Assembly: GCA_963715245.1 (NCBI GenBank)
Contig: CAVQRM010000001.1
Location: 1,051,797-1,115,796 of the forward strand
DNA length: 64,000 bases
Reading direction: 5' to 3'
From: an uncultured Chloroflexia bacterium
GTDB taxonomy: Bacteria > Chloroflexota > Limnocylindria > Limnocylindrales > CSP1-4
Positions within the stretch are counted from its first letter, which is position 1, and each line of letters begins with the position of its first letter. Below, one piece after another: positions 1 to 36,384 of the stretch. The notes under the pieces are model-generated. The model worked only from the letters and a program-made list of their open reading frames with translations, did not search any database and was not told the origin of the DNA. Made by a program: the position numbers and the translations under genes.

Positions 1-789
1 CGGGTCCGCCGCCGGTGGGTCGACCACCACGAACCCGTCGATGCCCACGTACGGATGCCCGGACGTCCCGAGCACGCGGATCGTGATCGTGTGCGGCCCG
101 CTGGAGGGCAAAGCGTGCCGGAACACGACCCGGCGGTACTGGGGGCTCGAGCGGTACAGGTCGACGATGCCGACCACCGTGCCGTCGACCGAGACCTCGG
201 CGCGGCCGCGCGTGCTCCTGCGGGTCCCGAACCAGGCAATCTGGCTTCCGGTGAAGGCGTAGGTCAGGGTGGCGCCCGCGGTCCCCGACCGCAGCTCGCG
301 GTCACCGAGGTAGCCGGTCGCCGATGTCAGCGTCCACGGCCCCGTCGTCGTCACCGCATCGTGCTGCTCGTTCACTCGGCGGACGCGGAAGGTCGCTGCC
401 GAGAGGTAGGTGCTCCGGTTGCCGGCACCATCGCGCGCCTTGACCCGGAACGCGTACTCGTGGGGCGGGCGCAGCGCCACGGAAACGCTGGTGACCCTGG
501 AGCTGGGGAGCGCCACCCGCTCCCACGAGCCGCCGTCCACCTGGCGCTGGAGGCTGTAGGCGGCAATCCCCGAGGGATCGGATGCCGACCAGGACACGGT
601 GAACGGGACCGTGGAGCGCTCGACGGTCCCGCCGAGCCTGGGCCTGGCGACCGGCGCCACCACCACGGGCGGGATGGTGTCGACGATGGCGTCCGCGGTG
701 GGTGCGATCGGGGACCCCGGCGCGGCCGACGCGACCACCATGACGACGAGCGCGGCGGCTGTGCGGCGGATCGAGCGCGGGAACTGCAC
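1..789 (-). CDS. Secreted protein with fibronectin-III-like and beta-sandwich domains; runs off the window start
   Basis: Not in the ORF track because it is open at the edge. GGAGG then GTG at 789; signal-like N-terminus (RSIRRTAAALVVMVVASAAPG); FN3-like VSWSASDPSGIAAYSLQRQVDGGSW...YAFRVKARDGAGNRS; then YAFTGSQIAW...GRAEVSVDG...GPHTITIRVLG. Confidence 0.7.
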   Translation of the reverse strand, partial: MQFPRSIRRTAAALVVMVVASAAPGSPIAPTADAIVDTIPPVVVAPVARPRLGGTVERSTVPFTVSWSASDPSGIAAYSLQRQVDGGSWERVALPSSRVTSVSVALRPPHEYAFRVKARDGAGNRSTYLSAATFRVRRVNEQHDAVTTTGPWTLTSATGYLGDRELRSGTAGATLTYAFTGSQIAWFGTRRSTRGRAEVSVDGTVVGIVDLYRSSPQYRRVVFRHALPSSGPHTITIRVLGTSGHPYVGIDGFVVVDPPAADP

Positions 790-24668: not shown

Positions 24669-27600
24669 TCAGCCGCCCCCGAACGCCACGTCGTCGAAGT
24701 AGTAGGTCTTGGCGCCCGCGGTGGCCCCGGTCACCCCGAAGTTGAAGAAGATCGACGCCTTGTTGTAGGTGTAGGCCAGGTTGAGCGCGGCGGTGCCGGC
24801 GGCCTGGTTGGCGAAGTTGAAGGTCAGCGTCTGCCAGCCGGCAGCCGTGGTCACCGTGGCCTCGGTCTCGACCGACTTGGTCGGGTCCGCGGCGTCCTCC
24901 ACCTTGAGCCGGACCTGGATGCCCGCGTCGGGCGACCAGACCCGCACCGTCATCGTCGTCGCCGACGCGGTGAACGGGATCGCGGGGACCGAGAAGTTCG
25001 GGCCGGTGGACACCGTGGTCCCGGCCCACAGCTCGGCCGTGGCCGACTTGAGGACCCTCGCGACCTTGTTGGCGGCATTGGTGGGATCGGCCACGACGGT
25101 CGAGTCGTCGGCCCCGCCGAAGCCGGTCAGGGTGTACGTGACCGCGGCATCGTCGAAGGTGATCGTGTCCCAGCCGGTCGGCGGCGGGGGCGGGGCGCCG
25201 CCCCCGAACGCCACGTCGTCGAAGTAGTAGGTCTTGGCGCCCGCGGTGGCCCCGGTCACCCCGAAGTTGAAGAAGATCGACGCCTTGTTGTAGGTGTAGG
25301 CCAGGTTGAGCGCGGCGGTGCCGGCGGCCTGGTTGGCGAAGTTGAAGGTCAGCGTCTGCCAGCCGGCAGCCGTGGTCACCGTGGCCTCGGTCTCGACCGA
25401 CTTGGTCGGGTCCGCGGCGTCCTCCACCTTGAGCCGGACCTGGATGCCCGCGTCGGGCGACCAGACCCGCACCGTCATCGTCGTCGCCGACGCGGTGAAC
25501 GGGATCGCGGGGACCGAGAAGTTCGGGCCGGTGGACACCGTGGTCCCGGCCCACAGCTCGGCCGTGGCCGACTTGAGGACCCTCGCGACCTTGTTGGCGG
25601 CATTGGTGGGATCGGCCACGACGGTCGAGTCGTCGGCCCCGCCGAAGCCGGTCAGGGTGTACGTGACCGCGGCATCGTCGAAGGTGATCGTGTCCCAGCC
25701 GGTCGGCGGCGGGGGCGGGGTGCCGCCCCCGAACGCCACGTCGTCGAAGTAGTAGGTCTTGGCGCCCGCGGTGGCCCCGGTCACCCCGAAGTTGAAGAAG
25801 ATCGACGCCTTGTTGTAGGTGTAGGCCAGGTTGAGCGCGGCGGTGCCGGCGGCCTGGTTGGCGAAGTTGAAGGTCAGCGTCTGCCAGCCGGCAGCCGTGG
25901 TCACCGTGGCCTCGGTCTCGACCGACTTGGTCGGGTCCGCGGCGTCCTCCACCTTGAGCCGGACCTGGATGCCCGCGTCGGGCGACCAGACCCGCACCGT
26001 CATCGTCGTCGCCGACGCGGTGAACGGGATCGCGGGGACCGAGAAGTTCGGGCCGGTGGACACCGTGGTCCCGGCCCACAGCTCGGCCGTGGCCGACTTG
26101 AGGACCCTCGCGACCTTGTTGGCGGCATTGGTGGGATCGGCCACGACGGTCGAGTCGTCGGCCCCGCCGAAGCCGGTCAGGGTGTACGTGACCGCGGCAT
26201 CGTCGAAGGTGATCGTGTCCCAGCCGGTCGGCGGCGGGGGCGGGCGCGCCCTCAAGGCGGACCTGGTCGAGCAGGACCGGGCCACGGGCGCCCTTCGGCA
26301 CCTCGAAGCCCAGGCTTCGAACGGCGGTGAGATCCGGCGACGCTCCCGTCGCCCCCTCGAAGGCCGACAGCGGGATGGTGATCTTCTGCCAGCCCGTGAA
26401 GGAGTCGGTGAACGTCGCGCTGAACGTGGCCGGGCTCGGTGCAGGCTGGTACAGGCGGACGTAGTCGACCAGGGTCTGGTTCGGGAAGGCCGTCGCAGGA
26501 TCGACGGTGCCGCCGAAGTTGCCGCCGACGGCCACGTTGAGCAGCAGGTAGAAGGGGTGGTTGAAGACCCACTCCTTGCCCTGCAGGAAGGCATCCGAGG
26601 GAGTGGCGGTGAAGTACGGGACGTTGTCGAGATACCAGACGATCCGGTCCGGCTGCCACTCGACTGCGTAGGTGTGGTAGGTGTCGGCGACCGGCCGGCC
26701 CAGGTCGACGACCTTGCCGTAGCTCGCCCCGCCGGAGTACCCGGGGCCATGCAGGGTGCCGAACACCTGGTCGGGCGCTCGCCCCACGTGCTCCATGACG
26801 TCGATCTCGCCCGTCTGCGGCCAGCCGACCCGGTCGATGTCGGTGCCGAGCATCCAGAACGCGGGCCACAGGCCGGCGCCCGTCGGCACCTTGACGCGGG
26901 CCTCGACCCGGCCGTAGGCCACCTCGAACCGGTCCTTGGTCACCAACCGCGCCGAGGTGTACTTGCACGGGCCGTAGGAGCATTGCAGCGATCCGTCGGC
27001 GGCCTTGGTGGTGATCACCAGGTTGCCCTTGCCGTCGGTGGCGGCGTTGGTGCCGCCCTCGGTGTAGTACTGAAGCTCGTCGTTGCCCCAGCCCGGGATG
27101 CCGTAGGCGGTGCCGTCGCCGACCTGGTTGGCCCAGCTGCTCGTGTCCGGTGCCGCGCCACGCTTGGTGTCGAACTCGTCGCTCCACGCCAGCTGCCATT
27201 GCGCGGCCGGGATGCCGGACCCGGCTTCGTCGTTGGCGAGGTTCACGGTGATGTCCGTGCCCTCGTTCCGGCCGTAGTACCAGAAGCTCAGATCGGTGGG
27301 GTTGCTCCAGTCCTGTGCGATCGGGAAGGTGCGGTCGAACGAGTAGGGGCCCTTCTTCGTCGTCTGATCGCCGACCTGCAGGACGTGCTCCCAGTCGCCC
27401 TGGCCGGGCAGGGCCATGGCGCTGCCGGACGCGAACTCGGGGTTGGCCAGCTTCGTCTTGTTGCCGGCCCCCCAGAGGTAGGGGAATGTCTCGAAGTCGT
27501 CGAGCAGGGTTGCGTCGTACAGCTCGTCGTCGAGGATGTTGACGCGCGCGATCGGCGGCAGCCCCATCGCCGCGCCGCCGGTCGGGTTGGACAGCTCGAC

Positions 27601-28551
27601 GAGCACACTGCGCTCACCCTGGTGCTTGCCGTCGTCGATCGTCTGCACGGTGAACGACTGCTGGGTGACGTTGGACGGGAAGGTCAGGGTGCCCGAGATC
27701 GGTTCCACGTAGTCACGGTTCGCGGTCGCGGTCCCGATCGTGGACGCGTACTCGACCGTCACAGGGCTGCTCGAGGGCTTGCTGAGCTTGGCGGTCATCG
27801 TTGCGATGGCGCCCTCGGTCACGTTGTAGTTGAGCGTGCTGAAGCCGACGGTCAGGGGCCTGACCGGGGCCACACCGTAGACCGCCGCGTCATCGACGTA
27901 GTAGGTCTGCGGGGCAGGCGTCGTGATCGTGCCCAGGGCCCAGCCGTGCACCTCGGTCAGGCCGAAGCCGTCGTTGGGCGCGCCGTTGCCGATCTCCTTG
28001 CGGGACAGGCTCGCGAACGGGATCTCGATCTTCTGCCAGCCGCTGAAGTTGTCCGGGAAGCTGGTCGACCAGCGCTCGGCGTCGTCCTTGATCGAGCCGG
28101 GGTTGCGGTTGTCGAGCACGTCCACGAACAGGGTCGTGCCGCTGTTGTTGCCATGCAGCCAGAAGGAGATCCCCGCGTAGGCGCTCCAGTCCTGGGTGAC
28201 CCACGCGTTGACCGCGCCGTTCTCGAAGGCGTGGGCGAAGCCCGCGAAGGAGATGACGTTGAGATCCAGCTTGAGCACGTTGTTGCCGCTCGAGGCGCCG
28301 GGCCGGGAGTCGGCCGGGGCGCCCGATGTCGTTGCGATGGCGACGCTGGTGGCCGGGTTCGGGTCCTCGAACGTGTTGAACCCGATCGCGACCCCGTTGG
28401 GGTCGACGCCGGCCGGGAGCCCGGCCTCGAAGTCGTCGACGATCGGGAGCGTCGCCGCGAGCACCGGGCTCGCGGGTGGGACGAGACCCGCACCGATCAC
28501 GACGGCCGCCAGGCCTGCGACCAATAGGGATCTGATCGTGCGCGGTGTCAT
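24669..28551 (-). CDS. Secreted multimodular GH16 endo-beta-1,3-glucanase (CBM11-like, Calx-beta, GH16 inside a split CBM11-like module, 3x CBM-like repeat); one frameshift near 26245
   Basis: GAGGAGG RBS; signal peptide MTPRTIRSLLVAG; GH16 WSDEF, WGNDELQYY, GLWPAFWMLG, WPQTGEIDVMEHVG; removing one base near 26245 restores the GGCGCCCCGCCC linker seen between the repeats. Confidence 0.88.
24672..26244. repeat. Three tandem 525-bp repeats (175 aa each), essentially identical
   Basis: Units start at 24672, 25197 and 25722; the only internal difference I found is C25196 vs T25721 in the Pro-rich linker. Confidence 0.95.
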
Positions 28552-28583: not shown

Positions 28584-29574
28584 TCATGGCGCGGTCGCCT
28601 TGTACAGGCGCACGTAGTCGACCGCCATCGGGTTCGGGAATTCCCTGTCGCCTCGGACCGGACCGCCCAGGTTCCCACCGACCGCGACGTTGAGGATCAT
28701 GAAGAACGGCTGGTCGAAGACCCAGTCGTTCGGGGCGACGTCGGCCGGCGTGGCCTCGTGGTACTTCACGCCGTCGAGGTACCAGGCGATGCGGCCGGGA
28801 CTCCAGTCGATGGCGAAGACATGGAAGTCGTCCGCCACCGGCGTGCCGAGATCGACGCTGACCCCGAAGCTGCTGCTGCCCGAGTACCCGGGACCGTGGA
28901 TCGTGCCCGTGATCTCGGTCGGGCGTCGGCCCACGAACTCCATCACGTCGATCTCGCCGCAGGCCGGCCAGGGCGTGGCATCGATGTTCGTGCCGAGCAG
29001 CCAGAAGGCCGGCCACAGCCCGAAGTCGCCGGGCACCCTGATGCGCGCCTCGAGGCGCCCGTACTCGATCTCGAACCGGCCCTTCGTCTGGATCCGTGCG
29101 GACGTGTGCTCGCACGGGCCGTACCAGCAGGTCTGGGATCCGTCGCCGGGGCGAACAGTGATCAGCAGGTTGCCCTCGCCGTCGGTGGCAACGTTCTCCG
29201 GCCGGTCCGTGTAGGACTGGCGCTCCTGGTTGCCCCAGCCCTGGAGCCCCACCGCACTGCCGTCGCCGACGTCGTATCCCCACGTTGCCGGATCGGGCGG
29301 AGACCCCGCCGGCCCGTCGAACTCGTCACTCCAGGCGAGCTCCCACGCCGCCGGGTCGATGCTCGCCGGGGCGGTCGGGAGCACGCTCGGGACCTGCGTC
29401 GGCGAGGCCGATGCCGAGGGCAGGGCGGTCTGATCGGACACGCTGGGCGACAGCGCCGCCTGCGTCCGTCGCGGCCGGCAGGGGATCGGGGGTGCCGGAT
29501 GAACCACAGGCGCTCACGAGGCCCACCACGAGTGCGGCCAGGATGAGCCGGGTGCCCACGGACGGTTCACGCAC
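28584..29574 (-). CDS. GH16 beta-1,3-glucanase lipoprotein, frameshifted near 29470
   Basis: Lipobox LVSAC in the 29326..29574 frame; Ser/Pro linker; WSDEF, GLWPAFWLLG, WPACGEIDVMEFVG, ILNVAVGG. Confidence 0.88.
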
Positions 29575-31883
29575 GGGTGCCCCGCAACGCGTGCTCGATG
29601 GCCCAGATCGCCAGCGGCCGCAGGTACATCGTGGCGCGGAAGTTCCCGTCCACGTCGTACGCCTCGGGCGTCCGGAAGCGGTACCCGCGCCGCTCGATGA
29701 TGCGCTCCACGCCTTCCGCCGTCTGCCACGCCTCCGCGGTCAGGCCACGACCCATCATGAAGGCCGCGAGCGCCCAGGTGGTCCCGACCCACACCTCCTG
29801 CGACTGCTCGCTGGAGGTGTCGACGCCACCGTCCGGCCGCGCGCCGTTGACCGCCCCCATCCAGCCGTCACCAAAGCCGCGGACGTTCCGCTCGAAGACG
29901 GTCCGGAGCGCCGTGTCCACGTGCTCGGCCGGGACGAGCTCGCCCAGGCCCGTGGCGTCCGCCCACCACTGGCCGGCCAGCTGGTCCGCCATGATCGAAT
30001 CGGCGGACGGCCCGCCGCCGGCGTCGTACCGGTACGTGTCGCCGCCCCACAGTCGTGCCTCGAACGCCGGCCGGGCTCGCTCCATGGTGTCGCGCAGCCA
30101 CGCGACCGTCGCGTCGTCCCCCATCCGCTCGCCCATCGCGATCGCGGCCCTGAGCGCCGCCAGCCAGAGCGATCCGCCATACGCGCTCGGCCCGAGCATC
30201 GGCCACGTGTCGTATGTCTGGTCCGGGACGCCGTCATGCTCGGGCAGGCCGTCGCCGTCACGGTCGAACGCGGCGACGTAGTGCATCGCTCGCACCACGG
30301 CCGGCCACGCCTCGGCCACCAGCCCCTCGTCACCGAGGAGCTCGACCGTCTGCCACACGAGCAGGACGAACTTCGGGTTGAGATCCTTCCAGCCGTTCAC
30401 GTCCTGCAGGTGGTACGTGTTGAGCGTGACGAACGGGTCCTCCGCCGGCCCGCCGACGTCGTGCGGTAGGGCGCCCGCGACCTTGCGCACCGCGTGGCCC
30501 CCGGTCGCCCACACGGGCACCACCTCCGGGTCGTCCACGTCCACCGTGGCCACGAAGTCGCGGATCACCCGCTTCGCCAGCTCGGGCCACAGCTGGACGA
30601 GCGCGAACGACGCGTAGAAGTAGACGTCGAGCGTGTTGTAGAACGGGTAGTCGAAGCACTCGAGCAGGGCGAACGGGCCCGAACCGTCCCGCCGCACGCC
30701 ATCAGCGTCGTGGTCCGCCCAGATGGTGCCGCCGTCCACGAGGTAGTAGAGCTCGTTGCACAGCGCGGCCCGGTACCAGTCCGGGCGACCCGGGGCCTCG
30801 AGCACGCCGCCATGCCAGGCGTCGACCTCGTCCTGCCACGCCACGCGGTGGGCGAGCCCCTCGGCCGCGATGGCAAGTGCCTCGGTGCCCGTGGTGCCGA
30901 AGTAGCGCGTGTGGCGGCGGTGCCAGCGGCGGCCGGCGTCGAACGCCATGACCGGGAAGTCCCAGGCGAGCGAGAACGCGACGGTGCGCGTCTCTCCCGG
31001 CGCGAGGACGAACGTGGCCGCGAGGGCAGCACCGATCGTTTCGCCGGGTCGGCTGGGCGTCGGGTCGTCGACATCGTCGAGGCATCCGTCCGCCGAGAAG
31101 TCGGCCCAGACGTCGGCGCCGTCGTCCGGGTCGAACCGGCTGCGGGTGCTCAGGCGGACGCCCGCGGCGGCTTCTGCCGCGATCGCGAACGTGCCCGCCC
31201 ATGCCTCGTCGGCGGCCTCGGCCGGCCCGGCCAGCACGACGCCGGTCAGCTCGTCCCTTCGGACGGTTCGGTTGTGATGGCCTCCCGCCCGGTCGCGGCC
31301 TGCCCAGTGCCCCACGAGGTTCTGCCAGGTGAACATGAGGCCAACGGTGAGCGTTTCAGGCCCCGGATTCTCGGCGGTCCACTCGAGCACGCCGACGGGG
31401 TAGCTGCTCTCGCGGTCGTTGCCGGGGATGACCGGCGACAGCTGGCGCTGGCGCAGGCGGACCGGCAGCGCCGGCCAGTCGTACGCGAACCAGGCGTTCG
31501 GGAACAGCGCGTGATACGTGCCGGCCCCGGGCGGCAGGTCCCAGCTCCATGACCTGAGCGTCTCCGGACGGATCGTGCTGAGCACGTGGGCCGCGGATCG
31601 ACCGGCGCCTGACGTGTACACCGAGAACTGGCAGGCCGGGATGGACTCGAAGTGATGACGGCCCGCATCGATGTGCCAGCGGGCGAAGTCGCCCCGCGGC
31701 GTCCGGCCGATGCTTCCCGACCCCAGCCCGCCCATCGGCACGCCGCCCCACGGGCCGTCATCGATGATGCGTCTCGTGGGTCACGTGCGAGCGCCCGGGG
31801 TCCGCGGCGCCGACGCCGATCCCGCGGCGCCAGGCGACCTGCGGAATGCCGTGGGCGGCAGGGGCACGCTCCACGCTGGTCAC
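29567..31883 (-). CDS. GH116 beta-glucosidase (GBA2-like), frameshifted near 31765
   Basis: DDGPWGGVPMGGLGSGSIGR, SSYPVG, NELYYLVDGGT, LECFDYPFYNTLDV, WKDLNPKF, PDQTYDTW, IMADQLAGQW, FRTPEA, MYLRPLAIWA; GTG overlaps the LacI stop. Confidence 0.92.
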
Positions 31884-32928
31884 GCGGCGCGACTCGACTC
31901 GCGGACGACGAGCTCCGTCGCGAACACGACCCGGCTCGTCGCATCGCCCGGGTTGTCGATCCGGTGGAGAAGCAGACGTGCCATCTCGCGGCCCATGGCC
32001 TCGATCGGCTGGCGCACGGTCGACAGCTCCGGCCGGGTCGTCAGGGCCAGCGGGCGAGTCGTCGAAGCCAACCACGGCCACGTCGTCGGGAATGCGGCGC
32101 CCACTCTCCTGGATGACCCGCATCACGGTCGCCGCCATCGAGTCCGAGGCGGCAAACACCGCGTCGAGCCCGGGCCGACGCTCGAGCAGCTCGCGCATGG
32201 CATCGGCCGCGCTCACCAGGTGGTAGTTGCCCGCGGCCTCGAGACCCGCGTCGAGCGGTCAGTCCCGCCTCCCGCAGGGCGTCGCGGTACCCCTCGAGCC
32301 GATCGATGCCCGACGACATGTCCAGGGTCCCGTGGATGGTCGCCACCGAGCGCCGCCCGGTGGCGAGCAGGTGCGCGACCGCCATCCGGGCCCCGCCACG
32401 GTTGTCGCTGTCCACGTGACTGACGCTTCCCTCGCCCAGCTGCCGCCCGGACAGGACGATCGGCACGCCGATGCTGTCGAGGTGGGCCGGAAGCGGGTCG
32501 TTGCCGTGCGGGCCGACGAGGATCGCGCCGTCAACGTGACCCGCTTCGAGGTACCGCTCCACGCGCGCCTCCTCGCGCGCCGTCTGGGCCATCAGGAGCA
32601 CGAGCTGGATGTCGCGAGCGGCGAGCCCCTCGCTGATCCCGTCGAGCAGGCGCCCGAAGAACGGGTCAGCGAACAGGATGCCCGCCGGCTCCATGATCAC
32701 GACCCCGATGGAGTCGCTCCGGCGCGTCATCAGGCTCCGGGCTGCCCGGTTGGGGACGTACCCCAGGAGCCTGACTGCGGCCGCCACGGACGCCCGCGCT
32801 TCCGGGCTGACGCGCTCGCTGTCGTTGACCACGCGGGACGCCGTGGCGCGCGAGACGCCCGCAGCCCGCGCGACGTCGTCGATCGTGACGCTCCGCCGCC
32901 CTCGTGGGTGAGCCCTCGGCGCAGCCAT
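31880..32928 (-). CDS. LacI-family regulator (CelR/CebR-like), frameshifts near 32265 and 32050
   Basis: TIDDVARAAGVSRATASRVVN, LGYVPNRAARSL, FADPFF, DAVFAASD, IPDDVAVVGFDD, LSTVRQP. Confidence 0.9.
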
Positions 32929-33811
32929 CAGCCCTTGACTGCGCCGGCGGTGACGCCGCCGATGATCCAGCGCTGGGCGATCACGAAGAAGATGATCATC
33001 GGCAGCGTCATCATGAGCACGGCGGCCGCCAGGAGCGGCCAGTCGTTGCCGTAGACGCCGTTGAACACGATGAGCCCTCGGGTGATCGGGTAGAAGTCCT
33101 CGGTCGTCAGGTAGATCGTCGCAAGCACGAGCTCGTTCCACACGCCGATGGCGTGCAGCACGGCCACGGTGGCGATCGCCGGTGCTGCCAGGGGAAGCAC
33201 GATCGTCAGCACGTAGCGCAGGTAGCCGCAGCCCTCGATCGCGGCCGCCTCGTCGAGCTCGATCGGAATGGTGCGGATGTAGTTGACCAGGATCACGATC
33301 CCGATCGGGTTCACCACGAACAGCATGATGTAGCCGATCGGATTGTTGTACAGGCCGAGCCGCAGGATCAGCTGGAACTGCGGGATCAGGGCGGCCGGCA
33401 GGAACAGCGCGATGAGGAACAGGGTGAACAGCGGCCCTGCCCCGCGGACGAAGCGCCGCGCGATGGCGAGGGCGAGGAACGTGCCCGTCACCACGAACAC
33501 GACCGTCGACACGACCGTGTAGATCACGGTGTTGAGCATGTACCGCGGGAAGTTCGCCTTGTCCCAGGCCTCGAAGAAGTTGTCGAGGCTGAACGACGTG
33601 GGCAGTGATGTCGCGTCCTTTGTGAACTCGGGCAGGGTCTTGAACGCCGTCATGAACAGCATCACCAAGGGCCCGATGTAGAAGACCATCAGCAGGATGA
33701 GGAACGCGTAGGCGACGAGTCGGCCCGGATCGGGACGCCCGAACCGGCGACGTGCCGGCTGCGGGTGACTCGAGGTCGTCGATCGAACGTGATCACCGCC
33801 ATGTCGTTCAT
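32928..33811 (-). CDS. Carbohydrate ABC transporter permease (CUT1); probable N-terminal frameshift near 33790
   Basis: IPIELDEAAAIEG EAA loop, VWNEL, YGNDWPLLAA, GGVTAGAVKG; no in-frame start upstream of the TM region. Confidence 0.88.
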
Positions 33812-33813
33812 CG

Positions 33814-34740
33814 TCATCCCAGCAACCGGGCCTCTCTACGCCGCAGCAGGTACTGCGCGGTCAATCCGATGATGAGGACGACGATGAACAGGACGATCGA
33901 GGCCGCAGCGGCATAGCCCTGGCGCAGCGACACCACGGTGCTGCCGCCGGTCGCCCCGAACCCCGTCGCGTAGACGAGGTACCCGAGGACGGTCGTCGTC
34001 GGCCGGTAGCCGGTCAGCACGAGGAACAGCTGCCACGCCTGGAGCGACCCGATGATCGTGAGCACGAGGTTGGTGTTGACCGCCGGGGTCAGGAGCGGCC
34101 AGGTGACCTCACGGAACACCTGCCATCGGCCGGCCCCATCGATCCTGGCAGCCTCGTAGACCTCCGTGGGGATCGTGGCAAGCCCCGCGAGGAAGATCAG
34201 CATCGTGATGCCGAGGTTCGACCAGATCTGCACCGCGGCGACCCAGAAGAAGGGCTCCATGGTTGCGCCGCCGAGGAACTCCGGCTGCACGCCGAAGATC
34301 TCGAACAGGTTGGCCATCGGCCCGCCGAGCGGGTACAGGAACAGCGTCCAGATGAGGCCCTGGATCGTCACGCCCAGGATCACCGGCAGGAAGATGATCG
34401 TTCGGAAGAACTTCGTCCCGCGCAGCTTCTGGTTCAGGAGGACCGCTACCAGCAGCCCGAGGAAGAACTGGGGGACCGTGACGGCGATCGAGAACAGGAA
34501 CGTCCGGAGGATCGTCTCCCAGTTCTCTCGCGAGGCCGCGCCGAGGAAGAGGAACTCGTGGTAGTTCTCGAGACCGATCCAGTTGACCGGCAGGCCAGGC
34601 AGGCCGGACGCGTCCGTGAGCGAGTACACGGCCGTCGCCAGCGAGGGTCCTAGTGCGAAGACGATGTAGAGGAGGAGCGCCGGCAGCAGGAGCAGGTAGG
34701 GTGCCGCTCTGGATCTGCCGCTCCCGAAGTGATACTCCAT
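33814..34740 (-). CDS. Carbohydrate ABC transporter permease (CUT1)
   Basis: WIGLENY, FFRTIIFLP, LAGLATIPTEVYEAARIDGA, GYAAAASIVLF. Confidence 0.92.
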   Translation of the reverse strand: MEYHFGSGRSRAAPYLLLLPALLLYIVFALGPSLATAVYSLTDASGLPGLPVNWIGLENYHEFLFLGAASRENWETILRTFLFSIAVTVPQFFLGLLVAVLLNQKLRGTKFFRTIIFLPVILGVTIQGLIWTLFLYPLGGPMANLFEIFGVQPEFLGGATMEPFFWVAAVQIWSNLGITMLIFLAGLATIPTEVYEAARIDGAGRWQVFREVTWPLLTPAVNTNLVLTIIGSLQAWQLFLVLTGYRPTTTVLGYLVYATGFGATGGSTVVSLRQGYAAAASIVLFIVVLIIGLTAQYLLRRREARLLG

Positions 34741-34780
34741 GGACCTGCGCCCTCCTCTGTCCGAGCGAGTCGGGTGACGT

Positions 34781-34808
34781 GGAGCCCGACCCGTCCGGGT
34801 CAGGCTCC
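34781..34808 (-). terminator. Stem-loop downstream of the solute-binding protein gene (mRNA-stabilising or partial terminator)
   Basis: Minus strand GGAGCCTGACCC-GGAC-GGGTCGGGCTCC. Confidence 0.55.
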
Positions 34809-34836
34809 ACGGCCGCGAGTAGATCGATGGGCGGGA

Positions 34837-36207
34837 CTAGTTGGCCTGGAGTCCCGAGTCCAGGTCGGCCTGGGCCTGGGTGGCCGCCGCCTGTGGATCG
34901 TCGAATTCGCCGAATGGCTTGAACAGGTTGTTGGGGAGGATCGGCCCGGCCGCGTACACGCCCGCGCCCTTCGGCCCGATCCAGTACTGCTCGAACCCGA
35001 CCTTGAAGTCCCCGAGGTAGGGGGCCAGCTCCTGGCCGATCTTCGCGTTGAGGGTTGCACCCGACTGCGTCGGGATGAACTGGACGGCGTCCACGAAGGC
35101 CTGGTAGTTGGCCGGCTCCGAGAAGTCCGCCAGCCAGGCGAGGGCGGCGTCCTTGTTCGGCGCGTTGCCGGCAACCGAGAAGACCATGTCGTACTTGCCG
35201 AACATGTACTTGTTGTTGGCAGCGTCGTCGCTGCCGGGGAACGGGACATAGCCCCACTCGAAGGCCGGCTCGGCCGCCTCGATGGCCGCCGCGTACCAGC
35301 TGCCACCCGTGAACATCGCGACCTCGCCGGAGGCGAAGCGGCCGGGGGCGGCGTCGCCGGCGATGCCGCTGGCGCCCTGCTCCATCAGGTCGCGGTTATA
35401 GGTCTGGTACTTCTCGAACAGAGGCAGCATGTCCGGGTTGGTCCACTTGACCGACCCGTCCCAGAGGCCCTGCGCGAGCCCGGCCTGGTCCGGGAAGTTG
35501 GCGCCCGCGAGGCCGTACCCCCCGACGAAGATCGGCCAGCCGTCCTTGCCGCCGGCGGTCATGCACGGGATGCTGGCGGCCTTGAGCGTGTCGCACGCCG
35601 CCACCAGCTCACCGAACGTGGTCGGCAGCGCGATGTTGTTGGCGGCCAGCAGGTCCTTGTTGAAGTAGATGCCGCTGTACACGACACGACCCAGGCCCAC
35701 GCCGTAGACCTTGCCGTTGTACGTGGTCGCGTCGGCGATCGCCACATCGTCGTAGTTCTTGACGAATGCCTGGTCCGTGATGTCGGCCAGGAGCGTCGCG
35801 TCGATCAGCTGCTGCCAGGAAGGCGGATCCACGTTCGTCATGTACGGCTGGACCGCGTTCGAGAAGCCGGTCAGCGTGGGGACCACGACGTCGACGTCGC
35901 CCGCGGTGAGGCGGGTCTGCACGGCCGTCGGGAGATCGTTGGCGTTGACGACGGCCATATCGACCGTGACGCCGGGGTGAGCCGCCTCGAAGGTCTTGTT
36001 GAACTCCGTGAGGAAGTCAACGAGGGGCGGGTTCTGGTGGATCAGGATTCGGACGTTGCCCGAAAGCTGCGGGGCCTCGCTCGCAGCGGCGCTCTCGCCG
36101 GGTGCGGCCGTCGGCCCCGCCGTTGCGGGCGCCGTCGTCGCCGTCGAGCCGCCGCAGGCTGCGACCGCGAGCGCGGCCACCGCCGAGATGGCAAGCAGTC
36201 TTCGCAT
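34837..36207 (-). CDS. Oligosaccharide ABC substrate-binding lipoprotein (SBP_bac_1/8)
   Basis: Lipobox AVAACGG; FEAAHPGVTV, GKVYGV, IYFNKDL, PTTFGELVAAC, FASGEVAM. Confidence 0.9.
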   Translation of the reverse strand: MRRLLAISAVAALAVAACGGSTATTAPATAGPTAAPGESAAASEAPQLSGNVRILIHQNPPLVDFLTEFNKTFEAAHPGVTVDMAVVNANDLPTAVQTRLTAGDVDVVVPTLTGFSNAVQPYMTNVDPPSWQQLIDATLLADITDQAFVKNYDDVAIADATTYNGKVYGVGLGRVVYSGIYFNKDLLAANNIALPTTFGELVAACDTLKAASIPCMTAGGKDGWPIFVGGYGLAGANFPDQAGLAQGLWDGSVKWTNPDMLPLFEKYQTYNRDLMEQGASGIAGDAAPGRFASGEVAMFTGGSWYAAAIEAAEPAFEWGYVPFPGSDDAANNKYMFGKYDMVFSVAGNAPNKDAALAWLADFSEPANYQAFVDAVQFIPTQSGATLNAKIGQELAPYLGDFKVGFEQYWIGPKGAGVYAAGPILPNNLFKPFGEFDDPQAAATQAQADLDSGLQAN

Positions 36208-36370
36208 GGTCGTGATCTGGTGCCTCCTCCAGGGAGTGGGTCGCCCACTCCGGTCTGCGCCGGCATCACGGCCGGCTTGATGGCCACGGATCTGTCCCGC
36301 GACGGACCCGGGCACCGATGCTCGGGTGTCGGCACTGGCGGGGCCCACGCGGTCCGTTGATCCGAGTCCA

Positions 36371-36384
36371 TGAGAGCGCTCTCA
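36371..36384. promoter_or_regulatory. LacI operator 1 (CelR/CebR-like)
   Basis: Perfect palindrome TGAGAGCGCTCTCA, similar to the actinobacterial CelR/CebR box TGGGAGCGCTCCCA. Confidence 0.8.

Follow-up and report, generated by a model that had tools for sequence, protein, structure and literature searches.

The window, by which we mean the whole stretch of 64,000 nucleotides analysed here (positions 1,051,797 to 1,115,796 of contig CAVQRM010000001.1, assembly GCA_963715245.1, from an uncultured Chloroflexia bacterium), has a G+C content of about 70% and carries on its minus strand a gene for a modular enzyme, in which a catalytic domain belonging to glycoside hydrolase family GH16 lies within a CBM11-type carbohydrate-binding module (CBM). 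Very probably, this gene encodes a secreted endo-beta-1,3-glucanase with a complete GH16 jelly-roll inserted in one surface loop of a CBM11-fold sandwich, and is part of a beta-1,3-glucan cluster.

Parts of the gene and the GH16 guest domain

The open reading frame (ORF) opens at the ATG at position 28551, and its first 768 amino acids (aa; P0001) extend down to position 26248 (Table 1). The start is confirmed by the sequence GAGGAGG 7 nt upstream of this ATG and by the ortholog P0003 (82% identical), which starts at the same Met. When the whole protein was scanned against Pfam, CBM_11 was matched in three stretches (E 8.8e-25) and Glyco_hydro_16 once (E 7e-26), and SKN1/KRE6 was matched more weakly in the GH16 region too. 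A first-pass annotation, made from the letters alone, had described here a continuous module followed by a second copy split around a GH16 domain. All the peptide strings it quoted are present in the minus-strand translation from ATG 28551, and its approximate limits for the N-terminal half (27510-27230), the GH16 domain (27200-26445) and the C-terminal half (26430-26250) agree within about 10 nt with those found in this work (27513-27226, 27204-26443 and 26436-26248).

Table 1. Coordinates of the nested GH16 gene, its parts and the neighbouring cluster genes, in positions of the window
Feature	Position	Strand	Basis or remark
In-frame gene part, from the signal peptide through module 1 (CBM11-like) and Calx-beta to the split module 2 (CBM11-like) with nested GH16	26248..28551	-	768 aa, translation
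Probable Sec signal peptide with the end ...SPVLAA, aa 1-33	28453..28551	-	Inspection of the sequence
Intact CBM11-like module 1, aa 35-233	27853..28449	-	Pfam CBM_11, E 8.1e-16, 59 bits (cutoff 27)
Calx-beta domain, aa 234-343	27523..27852	-	Pfam PF03160, E 3.7e-13, 50 bits (cutoff 27)
N-half of split CBM11-like module 2, with about 8 beta-strands (model residues 7-99), aa 347-442	27226..27513	-	Pfam CBM_11 positions 14-104/182
N-side connector, aa 443-449, AGSGIPA	27205..27225	-	Lowest-confidence model block, pLDDT 77
Complete GH16 beta-jelly-roll catalytic domain (guest), aa 450-703	26443..27204	-	Pfam PF00722, PDB matches
Catalytic motif EIDVME (E-x-D-x-x-E), aa 582-587	26791..26808	-	Translation, alignment
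C-side connector, aa 704-705	26437..26442	-	4 non-strand residues between last GH16 strand and first C-half strand
C-half of split CBM11-like module 2, aa 706-768, 4 beta-strands	26248..26436	-	Pfam CBM_11 positions 114-179/182
Frameshift, one extra base at about 26245	26240..26250	-	DNA comparison of three repeat linkers
Three tandem 525-bp repeats in the other frame, each a 175-aa CBM35_2-like module	24669..26237	-	Translation, Pfam
Solute-binding protein	34837-36378	-	Cluster member
Two ABC permeases	32928-34833	-	Cluster members
GH116 beta-glucosidase	29567-31741	-	Cluster member
Stand-alone GH16, 307 aa	28584-29507	-	58% identical to the nested GH16; immediately upstream of the nested gene
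GH149-like protein, 1133 aa	21111-24512	-	No Pfam match at E <= 0.001; 6hq6, E 5e-270

The guest domain is of the laminarinase type. Its Pfam PF00722 match scored 91.2 bits against a cutoff of 22 (aa 504-676), and a PDB sequence search returned laminarinase 3azx with E 2.1e-73; the nearest solved chains are laminarinases, one of them titled CapGH16_3. In the predicted structure described below, the GH16 part superposes on the laminarinase 2hyk with Z 37.0 and an rmsd of 1.1 over 235/237 residues, and on 3azy with Z 36.4. The EIDVME motif is intact, and its acidic residues (E240, D242 and E245 in segment numbering) are invariant in a 69-sequence alignment (A2). In the E-x-D-x-x-E motif, these three residues serve as the nucleophile, the helper Asp and the acid/base, respectively. 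The same kind of domain also exists on its own, both as the stand-alone 307-aa GH16 encoded next door and in many single-domain solved GH16 chains. From its sequence, the gene product is predicted to be a secreted endo-beta-1,3-glucanase of the GH16 laminarinase type.

Evidence for a single split CBM11-like module

The segments on either side of the guest (hereafter the N-half and the C-half) match successive parts of one family profile. Scanned alone, the N-half matched positions 14-104 of the 182 in Pfam CBM_11 (E 0.0072, 16.8 bits) and the C-half positions 114-179 (E 1.8e-5, 25.3 bits); the intact module 1 of the same protein matched positions 14-138 (E 8.1e-16, 59 bits). Because the ranges of the two halves are complementary, the flanks are parts of a single profile, of which GH16 replaces about 10 positions. 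The second copy, once joined, aligns with the first straight through the junction: blastp of the halves joined in a script gave 30/77 identical residues (E 5e-14) in an alignment that crosses it, and hhalign of a joined-flank profile (67 homologs) with a module-1 profile (61 homologs) gave a probability of 99.95% and E 8.9e-38 over 160 columns, gap-free at the junction, and with no strand overlapping or missing. The joined module 2 is homologous to a contiguous CBM11 module over its full length, and the host halves are collinear with contiguous homologs without overlap or loss, as in a domain insertion.

The point of insertion is the loop between the strand ...ITVNLAN and the strand FSATF..., which in the intact module 1 reads NRNPGSIKDDAERW. 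In the hhalign alignment, ...ITVNLAN is paired with ...FVDVLDN of module 1 and FSATF with RWSTSF; GH16 therefore occupies the loop that reads NRNPGSIKDDAE in module 1. Carried over to the CBM11 of Clostridium thermocellum Lic26A-Cel5E (CtCBM11; 1v0a, 2lro, 6r3m) via the alignment of module 1 with it, this loop corresponds approximately to residues 92-103 of 1v0a. The relation to CtCBM11 was detected from both modules: phmmer with module 1 reached 1v0a/2lro with E 0.02 over chain residues 44-126, and a profile built on 21 C-halves that were excised from genome loci, compared with all PDB sequences, had CtCBM11 (1v0a, 2lro) at the top with E 7e-8, aligned to residues 112-167, i.e., the last third of that module.

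The same final topology could also have arisen without any insertion, if an ancestral CBM11-GH16-CBM11 protein had lost complementary strands of each CBM and the remnants now complement each other. GH16 enzymes flanked by CBMs do exist, as in Thermotoga maritima Lam16A with its two CBM4 modules. Such a reciprocal deletion is nevertheless improbable: the halves abut exactly in hhalign, without overlap, missing strand or junction gap, only one loop lies between Pfam positions 104 and 114, and two independent losses would have needed precise complementarity. Moreover, no protein with a full CBM11 on both sides of GH16 turned up among the 269 proteins retrieved (see below), no search having been aimed at such forms.

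Structure prediction points to the same arrangement as the profiles. A first AlphaFold (AF2) model of a 426-aa unit, built from 32 close homologs, had a mean pLDDT of 69.4 and a pTM of 0.56, with most 10-residue flank blocks at 80-95 and the lowest at 64-67. It matched CBM11 1v0a with Z 14.8 and an rmsd of 3.3 over 147/170 residues (model range 3..426), and 6r3m with Z 14.7. A second model, based on the 69 more diverse sequences of alignment A2, reached a pLDDT of 94.4 and a pTM of 0.89, with all five models at 93.4-94.4; in a representative-wide structural search, it matched 1v0a with Z 14.6, an rmsd of 3.4, 149/170 residues and 23% identity, again over the range 3..426. Identity to 1v0a was 22-23% across the structural alignments of both models. 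Since the alignment spans residues 3 to 426 and yet covers only about 150 of them, the match uses the flanks and not GH16. The second model also matched the laminarin-binding CBM 8qx6 (Z 14.1, rmsd 2.9, 150/164 residues). In a narrower structural search with this model, only GH16 chains were among the 50 matches listed; Foldseek against the PDB returned no chain spanning both domains (best TM-score normalised to the query, 0.56), and a search of the ESM Atlas gave generic GH16 clusters only and no model of the window protein.

The cooperation of the two halves was also examined with the guest removed. A complex predictor was run on the N-half and the C-half as separate chains without GH16, with our own alignment supplied and with three controls. 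The halves scored 0.64 (0.64, 0.65 and 0.64 in the individual runs), and the best control 0.00; the pairing mark is reached by 116 of 157 solved complexes and by 2 of 215 mismatched pairs, these being rough counts here because of the use of our own alignment. The runs agreed in at least 92% of contacts, with a partner pLDDT of at least 77. In the predicted pairing, the C-half strands slot between those of the N-half, and the closest contacts are the strand pairings 78-82/381-386, 92-95/370-372 and 92-95/406-408. Because the CBM11 fold has been solved as a single chain, this positive outcome may come from resemblance to it. The AlphaFold check suggested by the first-pass annotation thus had an outcome in its favour, with two models matching 1v0a and the separate chains pairing well above the controls: together, the two halves are predicted to form one CBM11-type jelly-roll sandwich.

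Distribution, conservation and genomic context of the nested unit

The nested arrangement is widespread in sequence databases, with many bacteria of soils and sediments among its carriers, and hence not peculiar to the genome of the window. In a word-indexed protein search, 8000 candidates were scored, of which 3359 lay at E <= 0.001; the best 120 of these, 63-82% identical, all cover 95-100% of the 426-aa unit, and most of the 120 are about 1120 aa long, and the few named ones belong to Anaerolineae or Roseiflexaceae. Most of the 22,810 proteins found at E <= 0.001 in an exhaustive search of 50%-identity representatives were plain GH16. The three parts of the window protein (N-half, GH16 and C-half) were then compared by phmmer with 269 retrieved proteins, including 150 of the representatives, and the order N-half, GH16, C-half was found in 153 of them, including 34 of the representatives. 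Contiguous copies of the same module, with the N and C parts joined, occur within the same protein set, for example in P0127, P0144 and P0156. With complementary profile ranges, collinearity with module 1 and contiguous copies in relatives, the true insertion of GH16 in a CBM11-like loop, as first proposed from the letters, is supported.

At the genome level (one genome per species), 23 of the 79 loci returned match both flanks and the other 56 match GH16 only. The nested loci come from Chloroflexota, Vicinamibacteria, Trueperaceae and Actinomycetota and include the cultured Agromyces bracchium JCM 11433 as well as Cellulomonas and Microbacterium strains. The 18 genomes of the same genus (G001-G018) and 12 of the same order that were searched with this query, many of them only 62-94% complete, gave no nested gene; among the same-genus genomes, one had a GH16-core match only and another a weak partial match (E 1.3e-5). 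As the best relatives come from other phyla and none was found in the genus, the distribution is patchy, which is compatible with lateral transfer.

In a FastTree phylogeny of 145 GH16 cores, the nested forms group strongly together: the distinction of nested from plain forms needs 8 changes, compared with a mean of 43.5 after shuffling of the "plain" label (0 of 500 shuffles as low); this test shows clustering only, since related sequences share labels. The smallest well-supported clade with the window GH16 has 41 rows, of which 23 are nested, 12 have one flank detected and 6 are plain, one of the latter being the stand-alone GH16 next door.

The connectors between host and guest are short (about 7 and 2-4 residues) and nearly constant in length. 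Their spacing was measured in the 114 of 270 proteins in which all four anchor motifs were present. On the C side, the distance from DYVR.Y at the end of GH16 to F.GW in the C-half was 22 in 113 of the 114; on the N side, the distance from FW..G in the N-half to W.DEF at the start of GH16 was 32 in 94 and within 31-35 in 113, with a single protein at 64. Overall, these comparisons in silico show the nested arrangement to be old and conserved.

Several observations weigh against the insertion reading. Each half alone stays under the Pfam PF03425 gathering score (16.8 and 25.3 bits against 27), and a PDB phmmer search with each half as a single sequence gave no match up to E 10. The flank sandwich fits other beta-sandwiches equally well (the N-terminal domain of 2q1f with Z 14.7, 8qpg with Z 14.4, 8qx6 with Z 14.1); the Z values for 1v0a, 2q1f, 8qpg and 8qx6 are level, as this type of CBM sandwich is common, and the assignment of the fold to CBM11 rests on the sequence profiles. 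All the structural evidence is prediction, and the assembled gene is frameshifted after the C-half. The sub-threshold halves and the empty single-sequence PDB search would also fit two unrelated short extensions of GH16, and a 7-contig assembly with an apparent frameshift nearby would fit an assembly chimera of the window genome. Both are extremely improbable: the same order of parts recurs in the 153 of 269 proteins and in the 23 genome loci from four phyla, and profile and fold evidence both give a single CBM11-type sandwich, so that this explanation is already contradicted.

The sub-threshold scores bear also on the expectation, in the first-pass annotation, that profile scans would likely miss the split module. 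As worded, it was partly wrong, since hmmscan reports CBM_11 in three stretches of the whole protein and in each half alone; it holds at the curated 27-bit cutoff, at which annotation would drop both halves.

Beyond the C-half, the reading frame of the window gene is disturbed. Past ...LLDQVRLEG, the GH16 frame continues in nonsense as far as 24100, overlapping the start of the next gene, while the other frame encodes three 175-aa CBM35_2-like modules, ending at 24669. Their Pfam CBM_35_2 match is weak (E 2.5e-7, 31.2 bits against a cutoff of 23, in three stretches), and neighbouring 525-bp units differ by 1 and 3 mismatches. The two internal repeat linkers read GGCG-CCCCGCCCCCG, and compared with them, the junction that follows the C-half carries a single additional base, at about 26245. 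The ortholog P0003 is in frame through this junction into a single copy of the CBM35-like module. The three repeats are probably the true C-terminus of the nested-GH16 protein, and the single copy in P0003 suggests that the triplication in the window is either recent or an assembly effect. Among public assembled contigs, none from X1, a run of identical sequence, covers 26072-26362; a contig of a relative (X4, record 23), which differs in 10 other letters, crosses the junction and has two 1-nt insertions there, which restore the frame in the relative only. The frameshift may be either a real mutation or an assembly error of the window genome, which is in 7 contigs and estimated to be 87% complete.

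In most of the homologs of about 1120 aa (P0004-P0122), a C-terminal right-handed beta-helix (matching PF13229 in some) stands in place of the CBM35-like repeats. The nested unit is hence combined with different C-terminal modules.

The neighbouring genes on the same strand are, in order, those for a solute-binding protein, two ABC permeases, GH116 and the stand-alone GH16, followed by the nested gene and a GH149 phosphorylase. In the GH16 tree, the stand-alone GH16 groups with the nested forms in one well-supported clade. The 1133-aa product of the last gene matches the GH149 bacterial beta-1,3-oligosaccharide phosphorylase 6hq6 over nearly its whole length (E 5e-270). Judged from their sequences, the genes around the nested enzyme make up a coherent beta-1,3-glucan utilisation cluster.

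Possible role of the host sandwich and relation to known systems

In the proposed mechanism, the GH16 domain would be a side-branch on a chain of beta-sandwiches composed of CBM11, Calx-beta, the CBM11 host and the C-terminal CBM35-like modules. It would be a side-branch and not a bead on a string because the chain goes on past the host to further modules. In GH16, the N- and C-terminal strands would lie adjacent to each other, and with connectors that are short and near-invariant in length, the enzyme would be held in a fixed pose on its host. The pTM of 0.89 of the second model supports such a defined relative pose of GH16 and host. The host sandwich would then act as a rigid platform beside the catalytic domain, and our best guess, with the chances about equal, is that this platform also contacts the glucan chain.

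The cleft of CtCBM11 comprises, as we assume, the residues Y22, Y53, D99, R126, D128, Y129, D146, S147 and Y152, and the loop holding D99 serves as the insertion site. A full-text search on these residues brought up no relevant paper. The C-half profile alignment does show the residue types R126, D128, Y129, D146, S147 and Y152 at those chain numbers of 1v0a. Counting against a binding role, the window C-half has A, G, a deletion, R, S and V at these six C-terminal positions of the assumed list, so that one of the six is kept, and the split module 2 does not share the cleft of CtCBM11 in this part. With most of these residues changed, a binding site of the CtCBM11 type is not conserved. Module 1 likewise lacks most of the assumed cleft residues.

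The C-halves of split modules (alignment A3) are of two types, one of which keeps a DTAERF and a GAPNDG loop that are both nearly invariant in module 1, while in the other type the loops are trimmed. The loops are kept in the loci L008-L013, L016, L019 and L020; the trimmed type is found in L001-L006, L014 and the window copy, and likewise in the Chloroflexota proteins of about 1120 aa. The window copy thus has neither of the two loops, which module 1 has in common with other split modules, a further point on the negative side for a binding role. Residues conserved in the flanks belong mostly to core motifs common to module 1 (QDWS, FW.YG, F.D.F.GW, IP.F and LDQ).

It is quite possible, at somewhat under an even chance, that the host is a structural pedestal only, i.e., that the CBM11 fold has been retained with its glycan binding gone, that GH16 is displayed sideways from a rigid stalk, and that binding is left to module 1 and the CBM35-like modules. 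The single retained cleft position of six, the trimmed loops of the window-type C-half and the predominance of core motifs among the conserved flank residues all fit such a role. Against it, module 1 also lacks most of the assumed cleft residues, so that the whole clade may bind via other residues; the flanks fit the fold of a laminarin-binding CBM (8qx6, Z 14.1, 150/164 residues), and their strong conservation, with many invariant aromatics in 32 sequences, is compatible with a binding surface. Given the changed cleft residues and the two types of C-half, an auxiliary binding platform and a purely structural pedestal are held about equally probable. The idea in the first-pass annotation that the insertion sets the mutual position of the binding and catalytic sites is upheld in part: rigid coupling is suggested by the pTM of 0.89 and the near-invariant connectors, while a glycan-binding site in the host is putative, one of the six assumed cleft residues in the C-half being kept. 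Overall, the nested arrangement itself is confirmed and the insertion is real, and for its functional meaning platform and pedestal stand about level.

Of the known systems, CtCBM11 has the same sandwich fold as the window module and belongs to the same Pfam family; in contrast to the window module, which is interrupted by a 254-aa enzyme and has most of the assumed cleft residues changed, it is contiguous and appended to catalytic domains. According to one report, CtCBM11 is a type B module of two six-stranded sheets with one ligand cleft, in which "Y151" is placed (PMC5686792). The laminarin-binding CBM "X584" (8qx6) matches the reassembled flanks at the fold level and has the same presumed substrate class; it is a contiguous module with 11% identity to the window flanks, so that the likeness is one of fold. 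On the enzyme side, Nocardiopsis BglF (2hyk; 52% identity in the structural alignment), the catalytic domain of Thermotoga maritima Lam16A (3azx) and Cellulosimicrobium 3atg share the catalytic fold and motif of the window GH16. Solved GH16 laminarinase chains are, by contrast, stand-alone or terminal fusions, none of which extends over the model beyond its GH16 part.

Natural nesting of CBMs and glycoside hydrolases is known in the reverse sense. In EngU, the founding member of GH148, a CBM4 is inserted in the catalytic barrel between the catalytic residues (PMC5725463), and GH10 xylanases interrupted by CBM4 are reported as well (PMC7848910). The nesting in these cases is conserved across homologs, as in the window unit, but there the CBM is the guest and the enzyme the host, whereas in the window the enzyme lies inside the CBM. 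The engineered Bacillus bifunctional enzyme GluXyn-1 (1axk) and the circularly permuted GH16 lichenases (1cpn, 1cpm, 1ajk) demonstrate that the GH16 jelly-roll accepts new chain connections. This tolerance is due to its adjacent termini. In GluXyn-1, GH16 is presumably the host; GluXyn-1 and the permuted lichenases are man-made, whereas the window unit is natural, with GH16 as the guest. In the full-text literature searched, in which subscription journals are thinly covered, no description of GH16 or any other catalytic domain nested in CBM11 was found; with this partial coverage, the arrangement is to be called not found rather than unpublished.

According to a 2026 survey, domain insertion occurs in 20% of multidomain proteins (PMC13114784). 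Domain insertion is thus common and both parts of the window unit are textbook modules of carbohydrate-active enzymes (CAZymes), but the nested GH16-in-CBM11 topology is unusual. For annotation, the immediate consequence is that threshold-based procedures overlook the split module and arrive at wrong CBM counts for these proteins.

A more far-reaching interpretation, which is rather unlikely, is that the nested unit represents a distinct, widespread class of composite enzymes, in which the host has been remodelled as a rigid extension of the GH16 cleft, with glucan binding and cleavage on one surface. If so, it would be the first natural glycoside hydrolase guest in a CBM, the class would be mislabelled as "CBM11 + GH16" at curated CAZyme thresholds, and its action on insoluble or triple-helical beta-1,3-glucan would be altered, e.g., by extra subsites or processivity. 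Independently of this, the persistence of the arrangement across at least four phyla with an almost constant connector length argues for selection on the geometry itself. Should the host sandwich aid substrate handling, the nested unit would offer a natural model for the rigid coupling of binding and catalysis that is the goal of engineered CBM fusions.

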